From a virus (lineage: Duplodnaviria > Heunggongvirae > Uroviricota > Caudoviricetes), in IMG/VR virus record IMGVR_UViG_2529293000_000008: a DNA stretch of 14,962 bases. The stretch is one strand, 5' to 3'. Below are positions 3,283-14,962 of the stretch, piece after piece (position 1 is the stretch's first letter; every line of letters begins with the position of its first letter). Position numbers and translations under genes: made by a program. The notes under the pieces are model-generated. The model ran no database searches, had not been told where the DNA came from, and worked only from the letters and a program-made list of their open reading frames with translations.

Positions 3283-3465
3283 TCAGCGATTGCGGAAACA
3301 TTCCATAACCTCGCGGTCACGGTCGGTTAATCGCTTCGCTGTGATGCGTTCTGCGCGTCCTGACGCTTTATCTTTATGCCCTGTTTCCTGTGTCTTCCAT
3401 GCGTCACGCTGCCTTATAAGTCCACGGATAAGGCGGTTTTGTTCCCGCTCATTCATCAGCGTCAT
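3283..3465 (-). CDS. Possible small basic protein (about 60 aa) between HNH and TerS
   Basis: Internal ATG of the 3283..3687 ORF overlapping the HNH stop; Arg/Lys-rich; weak or no Shine-Dalgarno, so the call is tentative. Confidence 0.25.
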   Translation of the reverse strand: MTLMNEREQNRLIRGLIRQRDAWKTQETGHKDKASGRAERITAKRLTDRDREVMECFRNR

Positions 3466-6338: not shown

Positions 6339-7496
6339 TTAATCGTCGTCCTGTGGCAGTTCCAGAATCTTGATCGCGTTCGAATCCACCACGCCACCGC
6401 CTAAATATTTCTGCGTGAAAATTTTGATGAAGCCCGGCTCTGTGAGGTTGTCCGGTCTGGTGCGAACACCTGTTTCGTGATCAACAATGTAGTAACCGCG
6501 TTTGAAGTCACCCAGGGCAATAACGTTATCAGGCATAAACTCCAGATATTCGACCGGAAGGCCCAGCAACGTATCAGGATCACCCGCCTGTAAACGGTCG
6601 CGCCAGATGTAATCACCGTTCGCGTTCTTCACCTTCTGAAGTTTTGCCGCCGTCGTGGAGTTAACCACCCAGACCGCGTTTTTGCGGTATTTTTTACGTA
6701 ATGCAAATTTCAGGTCGATCAGCGGGTCCGCAGATGTCCACGCCAGAGATTCGGAAGGTTTAATTACCTGCAACGTACCAAAATCACGCTCTTTGTCGTT
6801 CTTCTCTGCACGGGGTACGGATAAAAAACCTTTTGCTTTTTTGTCACCGTCGCCCACAACCAGATCGCTTTCTTCGGTTTCCGTGAAGGTGTCGCCAATC
6901 TCACCCGTCAGCCATGAAAGGATGTCCACATCGGAAAAATCCACGATTTCCTGTGTGGTGCGCGGGTACGCATAGACCGGATACAGCTTAATGCTCACCT
7001 CGTTAATCTGCGGGGTGCTGGTCTGTTCGCGTGTCTTACCCTCTTCACCGTGGTTAACGGTCGCACCGCCAGCGGAAACAAGCTGCTTAAACTCGTTGCT
7101 GCTGATTTTCTTCACGGTACAGATGCGGCGCATGGTGGATTCATCCGTCAGCATTCGCATGATTTCGGTGTTCAGTTCGGGGATAACGGTATAACCACCA
7201 TCAGCGGGAACGCCTGTACTTAATGCGCGGGTTTCACCTGTCAGAATGTAGTTGCGTAGTTCTGCGGGGTCAGTGGTCTGGCTGCTTTTACCTGGCTTGC
7301 TGCGCTCTTCGTCTGCAATGGCTTCAAGGCGGGAAATGTCTTTATCGAGGGATTCAGCTTTAGCGCGTAATTCGTCAAATTTTGCGCCCTCAGCATCGTT
7401 AAGACTGCGGTTTTCTTTTTCCGCGTTCTCCAGCATGTCGCGCATCTGATTTTTAATGGCGGTTTTCTGCTGGCGTAATTCGATTATTCTCGGCAT
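6339..7496 (-). CDS. Major capsid protein (HK97 fold) with N-terminal coiled-coil delta/scaffold domain
   Basis: Start taken at ATG 7496 (MPRIIELRQQ...); the track ORF extends to a GTG at 7544; N-terminal charged coiled-coil region followed by capsid-like body. Confidence 0.9.
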   Translation of the reverse strand: MPRIIELRQQKTAIKNQMRDMLENAEKENRSLNDAEGAKFDELRAKAESLDKDISRLEAIADEERSKPGKSSQTTDPAELRNYILTGETRALSTGVPADGGYTVIPELNTEIMRMLTDESTMRRICTVKKISSNEFKQLVSAGGATVNHGEEGKTREQTSTPQINEVSIKLYPVYAYPRTTQEIVDFSDVDILSWLTGEIGDTFTETEESDLVVGDGDKKAKGFLSVPRAEKNDKERDFGTLQVIKPSESLAWTSADPLIDLKFALRKKYRKNAVWVVNSTTAAKLQKVKNANGDYIWRDRLQAGDPDTLLGLPVEYLEFMPDNVIALGDFKRGYYIVDHETGVRTRPDNLTEPGFIKIFTQKYLGGGVVDSNAIKILELPQDDD

Positions 7497-11309: not shown

Positions 11310-11378
11310 ATTAATCCCCGTCCGTCGTTTTTCTTAAAATAACCTCTGTCACGAAATCAGCATAATCGGCGGCGATAT

Positions 11379-11531
11379 TCAGTACATCAAGCCCCGTTGA
11401 TTTATATTCTCTCGTGGAAAGTAAGAAAAAGCCGCTCTAATAAGCTCTGGCATTGACGAAAGCGCATCAGCCGCATCATCAGGAACGCCGGAAAATTCCT
11501 GTTTCAGGGAATTAAAACGATCATCACGCAT
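11379..11531 (-). CDS. Hypothetical small protein (50 aa), not in the supplied ORF track
   Basis: Hand-translated from the minus strand: ATG at 11531 preceded by AGGGGGG, overlapping the upstream stop by 8 nt; MRDDRFNSLKQEFSGVPDDAADALSSMPELIRAAFSYFPRENINQRGLMY then TGA. Confidence 0.35.
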   Translation of the reverse strand: MRDDRFNSLKQEFSGVPDDAADALSSMPELIRAAFSYFPRENINQRGLMY

Positions 11532-11889: not shown

Positions 11890-12106
11890 GGTGCACCTCC
11901 TGCACATCAGCCATGATAATTTTTCCGGCCTTATCCAGTGCCTGATCGGCTTTTAGCTGCACAAATGCTAAATAATGGAAGATGCATTCTGATTCTCTGG
12001 CTGCGTGTTTATGCGCCCTGTCAGCAATAACAGAAATATCAATAAGCGCGTGCATCAGCGTAGTGAGCGCGGCGGCTGCTGCGTCCGGTGTGGTTTTATT
12101 GCACAT
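11882..12106 (-). CDS. Hypothetical protein (74 aa)
   Basis: ATG at 12106 with AGGGGG Shine-Dalgarno; overlaps the upstream ORF stop. Confidence 0.5.
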   Translation of the reverse strand: MCNKTTPDAAAAALTTLMHALIDISVIADRAHKHAARESECIFHYLAFVQLKADQALDKAGKIIMADVQEVHHA

Positions 12107-12302
12107 GGCCTACCCCCTGGCGAATACGGGCAGCGAATACCATCACGCAGCCATCAGGAGATTGCTGACGCGCTTCCTGTTCGCTGGTGGCCTCGATGGT
12201 AATCACGCGCGGTTGTGCCGTGCTCAGGGCGATAAAACGCCAGATGTATTTATTCAGGTCGTGCGAATCCCGCCCTTGCGGGTGTGTGGTATGATTTCTC
12301 AT
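12096..12302 (-). CDS. Hypothetical protein (68 aa), first gene of the small-ORF operon
   Basis: 3' portion of the long 12096..13124 track ORF; internal ATG at 12302 with GAGG Shine-Dalgarno; the upstream part of the track ORF crosses the promoter/operator region and is judged spurious. Confidence 0.45.
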   Translation of the reverse strand: MRNHTTHPQGRDSHDLNKYIWRFIALSTAQPRVITIEATSEQEARQQSPDGCVMVFAARIRQGVGHVQ

Positions 12303-12399
12303 AGCTACCTCGATACTTTCGCTATCGTTGGTGGTTAGAAGCCCCGTTACTGCTCCTACAGTGCGGGGTTTCGTCGTTTCTGTGCCTTTCATCAACAAG

Positions 12400-12480
12400 G
12401 TGTAAGACACAATGTAAAACAATGGTGTCTTACACGTCAACCCTTCAAAATATTTTTTTTTCGTGTATATTGTCTTACAC
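12400..12480. promoter_or_regulatory. Divergent promoter region with three operator-like GTGT-N3-ACAC sites
   Basis: GTGTAAGACAC at 12400-12410, its reverse complement GTGTCTTACAC at 12425-12435, and tTGTCTTACAC at 12470-12480; a T-run and TATATT lie between sites 2 and 3; sits between minus-strand and plus-strand operons. Confidence 0.55.
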
Positions 12481-12501
12481 CAAAAACATGAGGGGTTAAA
12501 C

Positions 12502-12681
12502 ATGGCAACGGGTCCAAAGAATGCAAAATCACAATCTGTAACTGCACGTATTGCCCATGAAATTATTGAAGGCATGGAGAACGTGAAAGAAGAAGGCGAA
12601 AGCACGGGACAGTTTATAAACGCAGCCATGCGCGGCGAAATCAAACGCCGCCAGCGCCGCAAGGCCAAAGAACCAGAGTAA
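12502..12681 (+). CDS. Small DNA-binding protein, likely ribbon-helix-helix (CopG/Arc/MetJ-like) regulator
   Basis: 59 aa; ATG at 12502 with GAGGGG Shine-Dalgarno 6 nt upstream; SVTARIAHEIIEGMENVKEEGESTGQFINAAMRGEI fits a beta-strand, helix, G-x-S/T turn, helix RHH layout; basic C-terminal tail; opposite strand to the rest of the island. Confidence 0.5.
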   Translation: MATGPKNAKSQSVTARIAHEIIEGMENVKEEGESTGQFINAAMRGEIKRRQRRKAKEPE

Positions 12682-12738
12682 TCACCATCAGCGCCGTGGT
12701 GTAAGGTATTACGGCGCATTGCTATGCAGGACAACACA

Positions 12739-12912
12739 ATGACCGATAAAGAATTGACCAAAACATTATCACCGGCACGGAAAAGACGGCGCAGAAAGAT
12801 AGAACATGAATCAGAAAGATTCGCGCCATGTGCTTTTGCCCTTGAGCAATTCCTTAAAGAGTACAGGGAAAAGCGCTCATTGCAGGTATGGCAACGAACT
12901 GAACCAGACTGA
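12739..12912 (+). CDS. Hypothetical small basic protein (57 aa), second gene of the plus-strand operon
   Basis: ATG at 12739 with weak AGGA Shine-Dalgarno; contains a KRRRRK stretch; followed by an intrinsic terminator. Confidence 0.35.
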   Translation: MTDKELTKTLSPARKRRRRKIEHESERFAPCAFALEQFLKEYREKRSLQVWQRTEPD

Positions 12913-13009
12913 TTGCATTGCCCACCAGCCTGATAGCGGCTATCATCCCCGTGCTTATGTTTGGGATCACACACACAAACGGCGCAGCGGGTTATCTGTT
13001 CAGAAAGGC

Positions 13010-13037
13010 GGCTCCATTTCGGGGCCGCTTTTTTTAT
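13010..13037 (+). terminator. Rho-independent terminator of the plus-strand regulatory operon
   Basis: gcggctcc-atttc-ggggccgc hairpin (8 bp stem with one G-U pair) followed by TTTTTTT. Confidence 0.6.
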
Positions 13038-13181
13038 GCCTGAAAAACCCCAATTTTGTGGTTTTCCAGTCTCACCAGGGCGAACGAATCCCCGCCCACG
13101 TTCTGGCGTATATTCAATCTTCATGGTTATAGCTCTGTGTTCAGATGATTGATGTGTGGCGGCTGTGTGCCGCCAGCGTGA

Positions 13182-13370
13182 TTAATGAACTGCCTTGCAG
13201 CTATCCTTCCAGGCCAGAACCTCGGATAAAGACCAGCCAACGGAACGACCGCCAAGTTTACGACGTGATGGGAATTGTCCGGCCTTTTCCAGGCGGTAGC
13301 GGCATGAGCGGCTAAGGCCTGTTAGCTTTTCGCATTCTTTTTCACGTATAAACCGATCAGTGCTTAACAC
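13182..13370 (-). CDS. alpA: AlpA-family transcriptional regulator / excisionase-like protein
   Basis: 62 aa; LTGLSRSCRYRLEKAGQFPSRRKLGGRSVGWSLSEVLAW matches the AlpA-family HTH pattern; GTG start at 13370 with AAGGGGG Shine-Dalgarno. Confidence 0.85.
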   Translation of the reverse strand: MLSTDRFIREKECEKLTGLSRSCRYRLEKAGQFPSRRKLGGRSVGWSLSEVLAWKDSCKAVH

Positions 13371-13652
13371 TATTGCCCCCTTTCGTTTCTTAAAGAGTTA
13401 TTTCGTGTTCTATTGCGTTGGGATGTGTCTGATTGTGTCAGGATGATTCAGAGTTGGCAAATGTTGAGGTCGTATGGTTTACAGAAACAGGAATAATCAG
13501 GATAAAATCATTTAAATTCATGTTAATACAAAGGCATAAAATATTGTTTCATGCCTTTTTTATCGCTATTTAAAGAGTGATTCGCTAGTGTATAAAAAAC
13601 CAGTAACACATTAAAAATCAGCTACTTATAAATCCGTACACTTTTTCGCCTC

Positions 13653-13727
13653 TTGTTCGTAGTTGTTCCGCATTGTTGCTCATTGTTGCATGTTGTATCT
13701 GTTCGCATATCCAGTATGCGCATACTG
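13653..13727. promoter_or_regulatory. Helically phased TTGTT repeats plus a 16 bp perfect palindrome between int and alpA
   Basis: TTGTT at about 13653, 13663, 13674, 13684 and 13692 (near 10 bp spacing), including tandem cattgttgc at 13671-13690; palindrome CAGTATGCGCATACTG at 13712-13727, 18 nt downstream of the int stop. Confidence 0.4.
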
Positions 13728-13744
13728 AAAAAACACGAAAAAAA

Positions 13745-14962
13745 TTATTTTCTTCTGGCTACTGGTAGCGTGGTTACGTTTTCATGTGTTCCCGCCAGTA
13801 TCCCTAACCGCTCCGTCCACATATCCAGCGCATTGCGTTTAGCATCCAGATAACGGGAATGATTATAAACTCGCTGCATTCCTGGCATCTGATGACCTGT
13901 AAGCTGCTCCACGACATGCGGATCAACGCCTAAATCGTTCAGCATGGTTGTAAAGGTGCGCCGGATGTCATGCAGTGACCAGTGAGGATGATTAAGCCTC
14001 CTGTGCGCTAATCTTCCATACTGCGATACGCTGGCCTCCTGTTTCGCTTCCCCCAGCAATAAGCCCGTGTGCCTGTTCTGCTCCACCAGCTGCGTGACGA
14101 ACGGCAGGATCGCTTCCGGTATGGGCCGGAATATTGCGACCTTCGTTTTGCTGTGCTCCTTCGGAACGGTCCATAGCATTTCCGTAAAATCCCACTCCCC
14201 GATCTCCGATAGCCTCAGTTCTACCGTCCTGGCTCCGAAGACAATCAGGAGGCGGATTAACGCGACGTAGTAAGGGGAAAATATTTTTTTGTCCAGTGCC
14301 TGCAATAATTCGCCAAGTTCTTTGTTACTTAAGACACGTTCGCTTATATCCGGTTTTTTCCCAACGTCCGCCACGTTCAGATCGTCCAGAACGTTGCTGA
14401 TTGCATAGCGCCGCCTACGGCAGAACTTAAGCGCCTGTTTGCACGCCTGTAGCACGAATCCGGCAGTAACAGGCGTTCGCTTTGCCACCTGGTCAAAACA
14501 GGCCAGCCAGTGCCGTAGCTCGCATTTATCCAGCGGCATAGCACCAATCTGCTGTATTACGTGATTATTAAGTCGCCTTTTCAGGGCGATATAATCCACG
14601 CGGTTTTCCTTTACGTAATACTCAAGCCAGTAGGTGAGCGCATCGCCAACCGTTACGGGCTTTAACGCTTCCTGTACGGTGTAATTCATCTCATGACGTG
14701 GATTTTTCCCCTCAGCCAGCCATGTGCGACACTGTGCGGCTTTTTCCCTGGCTGCTTTCAGGCTCAGATCAGGATAACTTCCCAGCTTAATGCGTTCGGG
14801 TCGTGTCTCCCTTCCCGTTCCGGCCCTGTATGTGAAATACCAGGTCAATTTCCCTGATGTTAAATATTTCACGCTCAGGTTTCCGCCATCACTATAAAAC
14901 GTGTTTTTCTCCGCTGGCTTACCATGAAGTTTCCTTAGCAAGGTATCGCTCAGTTTGTTCAT
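13745..14962 (-). CDS. int: Tyrosine recombinase / integrase (P4-like)
   Basis: 405 aa; N-terminal arm-binding-like region (LTSGKLTWYFTYRAG...LGSYPDLSLKAAREKA) and C-terminal catalytic region with HDIRRT and RVYNHSRY (His/Arg/Tyr signature); start codon lies at the window edge. Confidence 0.92.
   Translation of the reverse strand: MNKLSDTLLRKLHGKPAEKNTFYSDGGNLSVKYLTSGKLTWYFTYRAGTGRETRPERIKLGSYPDLSLKAAREKAAQCRTWLAEGKNPRHEMNYTVQEALKPVTVGDALTYWLEYYVKENRVDYIALKRRLNNHVIQQIGAMPLDKCELRHWLACFDQVAKRTPVTAGFVLQACKQALKFCRRRRYAISNVLDDLNVADVGKKPDISERVLSNKELGELLQALDKKIFSPYYVALIRLLIVFGARTVELRLSEIGEWDFTEMLWTVPKEHSKTKVAIFRPIPEAILPFVTQLVEQNRHTGLLLGEAKQEASVSQYGRLAHRRLNHPHWSLHDIRRTFTTMLNDLGVDPHVVEQLTGHQMPGMQRVYNHSRYLDAKRNALDMWTERLGILAGTHENVTTLPVARRK

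Follow-up and report, generated by a model that had tools for sequence, protein, structure and literature searches.

A candidate ribbon-helix-helix repressor and its operators at the divergent switch of a capsid-forming phage satellite

A 59-aa protein encoded on the plus strand of a phage satellite is probably an autoregulated, immunity-type repressor of the ribbon-helix-helix (RHH) class that controls the main operon of the element. The satellite is contained in the window, by which we mean the whole stretch of viral DNA that was analysed (14,962 nucleotides, IMG/VR record IMGVR_UViG_2529293000_000008), and we infer both binding and repression by the protein from sequence comparison and a structural model. 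The location of its predicted sites on both core promoters, the exchange of the regulator slot between elements, and the difference in specificity class between satellites that share a host would all be consistent with the role of a master repressor or immunity factor. We regard this protein as the best candidate yet for the off-switch of a Gram-negative satellite, a component that such elements were not known to possess.

The satellite and its divergent cassette

Positions 12000-13450 of the window (a query of 1,451 bp) are 100% identical to the genome of E. coli MS20645 (NZ_CP082091), in which the counterpart, as annotated by PGAP, is an island of roughly 15 kb that splits tqsA. The island genes annotated there comprise an integrase, alpA, an icd-like gene, small ORFs, a DUF4222 gene, a primase, an SSB and PerC, together with a packaging set consisting of major capsid, prohead protease, portal, head completion, HNH, TerS and TerL, and the same annotation includes no tail or lysis genes. 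The alpA and primase assignments are backed by Pfam matches in the window itself. We recognised a capsid-forming PICI (cf-PICI) by a length of about 10-15 kb, the presence of int, alpA and primase genes, the possession of its own capsid, portal, protease, connector and terminase genes, and the absence of tail and lysis genes; this gene set was defined in bioRxiv 10.1101/2022.09.08.507074, and the island genes are that set. Judged by its gene content, the window is therefore a cf-PICI, a form of phage satellite. In the identical genome a frameshifted, incomplete hypothetical gene is also annotated within the leftward operon, at 11329-11531 on the minus strand.

All genes of the island lie on the minus strand, save those of a small cassette on the plus strand, which separates alpA from the icd-like gene. 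An earlier, sequence-only reading of this DNA had stated that Gram-negative PICIs are usually described as unidirectional, in agreement with Fillol-Salom 2018, where they are 'transcribed unidirectionally' and the global repressor is called 'unclear'. That reading had also described a divergent layout with three operator-like sites and a two-gene rightward operon closed by a clean terminator. The three sites are present, at 12400, 12425 and 12470, the third with one mismatch; promoter-like hexamers face both ways, and ORFs of 59 and 57 aa lie at 12502-12681 and 12739-12912. The terminator is likewise real, but it lies past the end that had been given for the region, at 13002-13036. The features of the region are:

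12096..12302, minus strand: icd-like gene, which opens the leftward operon (NF033153, E 1e-19)
12338..12372, minus strand: conserved leader stem-loop of the leftward transcript, consensus GCGAAGCCCGGCAGUGC-loop-AACACUAACCGGGCCUCUAACCAC
12400..12410, unstranded: predicted operator O1, GTGTAAGACAC, an exact match, at about -6 to +5 of P_L
12411..12440, minus strand: leftward promoter P_L (consensus-level), TTGACG (12440-12435), 18-nt spacer, TACATT (12416-12411)
12425..12435, unstranded: predicted operator O2, GTGTCTTACAC, the reverse complement of GTGTAAGACAC, in the P_L spacer and abutting the -35
12444..12471, plus strand: rightward promoter P_R (consensus-level), TTCAAA, 16-nt spacer, TATATT, upstream of the regulator gene
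12470..12480, unstranded: predicted operator O3, TTGTCTTACAC, with one mismatch, overlapping the end of the P_R -10 and covering its start site
12502..12681, plus strand: ORF for the 59-aa regulator, YlcI/YnfO family, with a Shine-Dalgarno-like sequence by direct reading
12691..12717, plus strand: intergenic hairpin between the two rightward genes, GCGCCGUGGUG-UAAGG-UAUUACGGCGC
12739..12912, plus strand: 57-aa accessory gene (phrog_21027), product with a basic N-terminus, and a Shine-Dalgarno-like sequence by direct reading
13002..13036, unstranded: intrinsic terminator, a GC stem then T7 with an A-tract before it, common to the rightward operon and the convergent alpA
13182..13370, minus strand: alpA, activator/excisionase family (PF05930, E 5e-18), convergent with the regulator operon

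From their promoter-like hexamers, P_L would drive the operon of the icd-like, replication and packaging genes, and P_R would drive the gene of the 59-aa regulator. The terminator is flanked by an A-tract and a T-tract and is therefore usable in both directions, ending alpA transcripts too. The product of the icd-like gene bears the NCBIfam name of cell-division inhibitor Icd-like protein, and also matches phrog_6196 (E 4e-45), a family labelled 'transcriptional repressor' in PHROGs.

The candidate regulator, its predicted operators and their specificities

The 59-aa protein matches the NCBIfam family YlcI/YnfO (NF041551) over residues 9-50, scoring 64.8 bits where the family cut-off is 30 (E 5e-18); no Pfam family matches it at E up to 1, and the two PHROGs families to which it is assigned both lack a known function. 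An AlphaFold2 monomer model (mean pLDDT 89.5) has an extended N-terminus, a helix at residues 19-28, a turn formed by G32-E33-S34-T35 and a second helix at 35-56, which is the RHH layout of an N-terminal beta-strand followed by two helices with a G-x-S/T/N turn between them. The protein has 108 homologues, from Enterobacterales, and in an alignment of 41 sequences N7, S10, R16, E33, S34, F38 and E46-R50 are invariant; the inter-helix G-E-S-T turn consists of two invariant residues, E33 and S34, framed by the nearly invariant G32 and T35. In the strand, residues 13, 15 and 17 are hydrophobic and residues 10, 12, 14 and 16 polar, an alternation that would fit a ribbon with a single DNA-facing side, towards which residues 12 and 14 are predicted to point. 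The sequence-only reading had taken this protein for an RHH-like regulator of the nearby operators and had named structure prediction as a check; the model fits RHH proteins, and the NCBIfam match, the G-E-S-T turn and the co-variation of the operator core with residues 12-14 described below all speak for that view. A Foldseek search of the PDB with the model found nothing, and neither single-sequence nor profile searches gave a meaningful match among solved structures, and the RHH assignment, which we consider good, thus depends on a single monomer model. No additional domain is present at the C-terminal end of the regulator, and its strictly conserved EIKRRQR tail is a possible interaction surface. 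A tblastn search gave no match in 50,697 deposited phage genomes, and the subfamily therefore appears to be specific to satellites and islands.

Within the 14,962 bases of the window GTGTNNNACAC occurs exactly twice, once at O1 and once at O2, where 0.17 occurrences are expected, and two matches were reached in three of 200 shuffles. A one-mismatch copy at 7031 (in the capsid gene) and a two-mismatch copy at 3390 are at chance level in the window scan, which found no operator copies upstream of alpA or int. Between O1 and O2 the sequence ACAATG is present twice, 10 bp apart (12409-12424), and is complementary to CAACAATG repeats upstream of alpA (13671-13700); these repeats could be candidate AlpA sites, with a similarity that is possibly at chance level.

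In our judgement the decisive case against chance is comparative. A scan of one genome per species yielded 78 loci, 69 of which, from about 20 genera, had a placeable gene and at least 135 bases readable upstream. These 69 loci have sites of the form nTG-N5-CAn at fixed positions, -32, -77, and -99 to -112 from the start codon, with three copies in 60 and two in another five of the 69 when one mismatch is allowed in the 9-nt core. The same comparison gives nTG-N5-CAn as the general motif, the flanking T and A of 'GTGT/ACAC' being part of the window element's own core. The consensus across loci reads ...TG-N5-CAC-n-TCAA...T-rich...GTATACTG-N5-CACC...aggag...ATG, with flanks that are conserved in all loci. 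O3 is found at -32 in every locus with the consensus GTATACTG-N5-CACC, and O2 at -77 in nearly all of them, always direct relative to O3 and separated from it by 45 bp. O1 has the direct orientation in 30 loci and the inverted one in another 30, and it lies either 22-26 or 34-36 bp from O2, two ranges set apart by about one helical turn; this helical phasing suggests cooperation between dimers bound at O1 and O2.

The promoters share this conservation. The P_R -10 (TATACT) is strongly conserved across loci, with a weak, T-rich -35, and a P_L pattern of TTGAnn-17/18-TAnnnT is present in 64 of 67 non-redundant loci, with O2 within the spacer and the O1-equivalent at or just past the leftward -10, so that both -10 hexamers are fused to a site. 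Most loci have the gene order int, alpA, regulator (on the opposite strand), icd-like, DUF4222, primase. In many loci a terminator follows no more than about 60 nt past the regulator stop codon, and the regulator unit is therefore usually monocistronic. Loci L013, L018, L052, L064, L067, L075 and L076, from other genera, carry Bro-N/AntA-like genes of about 200-270 aa between the regulator and alpA on the alpA strand; these would be co-transcribed with alpA, and their products are candidate antirepressors.

The 5-bp core at the centre of the motif is identical at the sites within a locus and differs between loci, and the 21 distinct O3 cores group into about 16 strand classes. Pairings of strand residues 11-17 with the core include:

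QSVTARI: core TCTTA
QMTTVRI: core ACATA or AAATA
KKLEARV: core TCAGC
LQVSVRL: core AACAC
QQLNARF: core AATCG
QALKARV and QSLKSRV: core TGGCC
QKMSARV: core GCACC
QQIVSRV: core AATGC
KRFDVRV: core TCGGA

The core is most strongly associated with residue 14, which is a member of all 12 best residue pairs, with residue 13 as its partner in the best pair and residue 12 in the third-best. Between the regulators of loci L002 and L003, whose cores differ, identity is 83% outside the strand and 20% inside it. An operator-first sample was obtained by searching IMG/VR with the O1-O2 pair of the window alone; a regulator gene with the S12/T14 strand is present in 27 of the 28 contigs found, in combination with helices and tails that vary. 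Co-variation of adjacent DNA and protein is partly confounded by linkage, but because three cores shift jointly, amid conserved flanks, while the promoter elements and the GTG/CAC arms stay fixed, the pattern points to one reader with changing specificity rather than to drift or hitch-hiking.

The slot that the regulator occupies is itself exchanged between elements. In the cf-PICI located beside roxA in O157:H7 F7386, the same slot encodes a different 57-aa protein (L081:3325-3498, MSTPLEKRSPPYQMRLPEDF...) of Arc-like layout, with a Pfam Arc match at E 0.038 that is below threshold. This protein has repeats of its own, two GGTAATTACC palindromes 30 bp apart, and is followed by the same hairpin, 57-aa accessory gene and terminator as in the window. 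At the same roxA site in E. coli EC21Z-144 the slot holds a 101-aa variant of the regulator family (L083:2226-2531), in which about 42 inserted residues separate the EI(K/A)RRQ motif from the shared C-terminal tail, and its operators have AAACA cores in the usual layout. Satellite loci that are co-resident in one host never share a class (0 of 23 pairs, with 3.3 expected; P about 0.01 by shuffling within genus groups), a count that omits an identical pair found on separate contigs of a single draft assembly, likely a duplicate. Our reading is that regulator and operators would together behave as an exchangeable immunity cassette with many specificities.

Proposed mechanism and alternative explanations

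We propose that the 59-aa protein would bind each 11-bp site as a dimer whose two-stranded beta-ribbon enters the major groove, with the invariant S10 and R16 likely to read the invariant GTG/CAC arms and the variable residues 12 and 14 likely to read the 5-bp core. Occupancy of O1 and O2, at the P_L start site and spacer, would keep the operon of icd-like, replication and capsid-packaging genes silent while the satellite is integrated, and the presence of two sites on this lytic-type operon promoter would make for tight repression. O3, which is fused to the -10 of the regulator's own promoter, would provide negative autoregulation.

Any such repression has to be reconciled with the role of AlpA, the PICI activator (PMC6092414), which is needed for induction of Gram-negative PICIs and whose overexpression alone drives reproduction of the cf-PICI EcCIEDL933. 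As overexpressed AlpA switches on related cf-PICIs, repression by the 59-aa protein would have to be overcome downstream of, or in parallel to, AlpA, and for the same reason the 59-aa protein may not be the primary switch. Candidates for derepression would include AlpA acting at P_L, the Bro/Ant-like antirepressors, a helper protein, and interference from convergent alpA transcription across the terminator, which is weaker on that strand. The idea of AlpA as a processive antiterminator reading into the switch, drawn from an analogy with the AlpA of P. aeruginosa, was dropped, the P. aeruginosa protein being a Q-like eight-helix protein that is unrelated to the 62-aa Phage_AlpA family.

The necessity of AlpA for Gram-negative PICI induction and its sufficiency, when overexpressed, for cf-PICI reproduction would also suit a more local role, in which the 59-aa protein is an autoregulator of its own small operon and AlpA governs the main operon through another promoter or through read-through; P_L, moreover, is recognised by its consensus only. 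We consider this explanation unlikely, in that the leftward promoter, and not the protein's own, holds two of the three sites, in a geometry kept in 64 of 67 loci, and the exchange of cassettes and the exclusion of shared classes among co-residents would be hard to explain by purely local control.

A second possibility is that the 59-aa protein is unrelated to the repeats and that something else reads them, for example AlpA, the Icd-like protein, or a protein of the host or helper. The 'transcriptional repressor' label of phrog_6196 on the Icd-like protein would favour this, as would the resemblance of the ACAATG repeats between O1 and O2 to the repeats upstream of alpA. The gene of the 59-aa protein is, however, the only one that always adjoins the sites, and the core classes follow its residues 12-14 rather than the neighbouring proteins: at L013 the leftward proteins are 74-92% identical to those of the window and both strand and core differ, and the Xenorhabdus loci, which have no icd-like gene, retain both the regulator and its sites. 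The finding of the same strand in 27 of 28 contigs chosen by operator alone points the same way, and we judge a different reader to be very improbable.

The sequence-only reading had further suggested that the 57-aa gene could encode a partner or toxin-like component, and we also considered a toxin-antitoxin or addiction module, with the RHH protein as antitoxin and the 57-aa protein as toxin. Neither idea finds support in our data, and we give the addiction module scarcely any credence. The 36 homologues of the 57-aa gene are all from E. coli or Shigella and the gene is absent from the loci of other genera, so that no conserved toxin accompanies the regulator, and many of the other-genus loci have a terminator no further than about 60 nt from the regulator stop codon. 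Searches of Pfam, NCBIfam and PADLOC gave no toxin, defence or Pfam family match for the 57-aa protein, PADLOC matched no defence system in the cassette and its neighbours, and the AlphaFold2 model of the protein is a simple pair of helices (pLDDT 73). The lack of an additional C-terminal domain in the regulator also counts against such a module. The weakest alternative, in which an omega- or ParG-like RHH protein would bind the repeats as iterons of a replication origin or as a centromere for partition, can practically be set aside, there being no ParA-type gene nearby and three sites only, each locked to a promoter element.

Under the repressor reading that we prefer, the 57-aa gene would be a lineage-specific passenger or accessory gene expressed together with the repressor. 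It is a real coding gene, because its homologues have an invariant ERFAPCxFxLE core and differ by in-frame indels. In the identical genome PGAP omits it, and a minus-strand 'hypothetical protein' pseudogene is called across 12609-13124 instead.

Relation to known systems and RNA elements

The module, probably a switch of the RHH repressor type, falls by sequence outside Arc/Mnt, omega and Stl and inside the named but uncharacterised YlcI/YnfO family. The immI region of P22, with Arc and Mnt, resembles it in function and has no sequence relationship to it (Pfam Arc does not match the window protein). Two proteins act in immI, with one operator per promoter, whereas in the window a single protein would serve both promoters through three separated 11-bp sites, and the immI operon carries an antirepressor where that of the window carries replication and packaging genes. 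The omega repressor of pSM19035 (inc18 plasmids) is also similar in function, but it occupies contiguous arrays of 7 to 10 heptads and acts in plasmid partition too, in contrast to 11-bp sites that lie 22-45 bp apart in an element from which partition genes are absent.

In proposed role the regulator parallels the Stl proteins of the Gram-positive PICIs, which are much larger helix-turn-helix proteins and unrelated to the window regulator. Like it, the Stl/Rpr master repressors of SaPIs are satellite-encoded, divergent from the main operon and diverse between elements (PMC6092414). The stl gene has the same direction as int, whereas the window gene converges on alpA and int, and derepression of Stl by helper proteins is proven, whereas for the window regulator a helper protein is one of several candidate routes.

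YlcI of prophage DLP12 and YnfO of Qin, both in E. coli K-12, belong to the same NCBIfam family (NF041551) as the window protein, and YlcI (L082:6252-6446) shares its strand-helix-turn-helix layout by eye, without BLASTP similarity. The ylcI gene adjoins nohD in the lambdoid DLP12, whereas the window gene stands beside a satellite switch. To our knowledge neither of the K-12 proteins has a known function, and a regulator role in the window would give the uncharacterised YlcI/YnfO family a probable one.

The literature that we searched contained no paper describing this regulator-operator module, and the gene that lies downstream of alpA is described in the 2025 cf-PICI work as variable and 'of unknown function'. 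It is quite possible, and we propose it tentatively, that the AlpA-type satellites of the Enterobacterales, PICIs and cf-PICIs alike, have their missing master or immunity repressor in this RHH family, with 15-20 or more natural specificities set by two or three strand residues, and that helper-dependent induction would have to overcome the repressor. If this is true, the family would be a natural orthogonal set of 59-aa repressor/operator pairs with a readable recognition code, and the matched strand and operator pairs would form a natural series for the study and engineering of RHH specificity. The cassette on the main-operon promoter would be a concrete, testable off-switch for Gram-negative satellites, could account for the regional variation between otherwise near-identical cf-PICIs, and predicts the existence of immunity groups among satellites.

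Immunity can also be exerted by RNA, as in P4 (CI RNA) and P1 (c4-icd-ant), where the leader under control likewise belongs to an operon, in a satellite or phage, whose first gene is icd or icd-like; in contrast, the predicted control element of the window is a protein with DNA operators. C4 and isrK RNAs have been reported in some Gram-negative PICIs (PMC10111431). Rfam searches of the window at gathering score, and of 12000-13800 at E up to 10, found neither of these nor any other relevant family, and gave only weak matches, to the terminator hairpin.

Two hairpins lie to either side of the regulator gene. The hairpin at 12691-12717 is the left edge of a segment that is common to elements with other regulators, and follows a different regulator in L081 and L083; the GTGTAAGG sequence inside it (12697-12704) was considered as an operator and rejected, since the same hairpin follows unrelated regulators in those two loci. 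The stem-loop in the leader of the leftward transcript has no Rfam match and shows compensatory changes at five of nine pairs in an alignment of 22 loci. The O157 element, with its different regulator, has this stem-loop too, and on the plus strand it takes the form of a hairpin followed by a T-rich tract.
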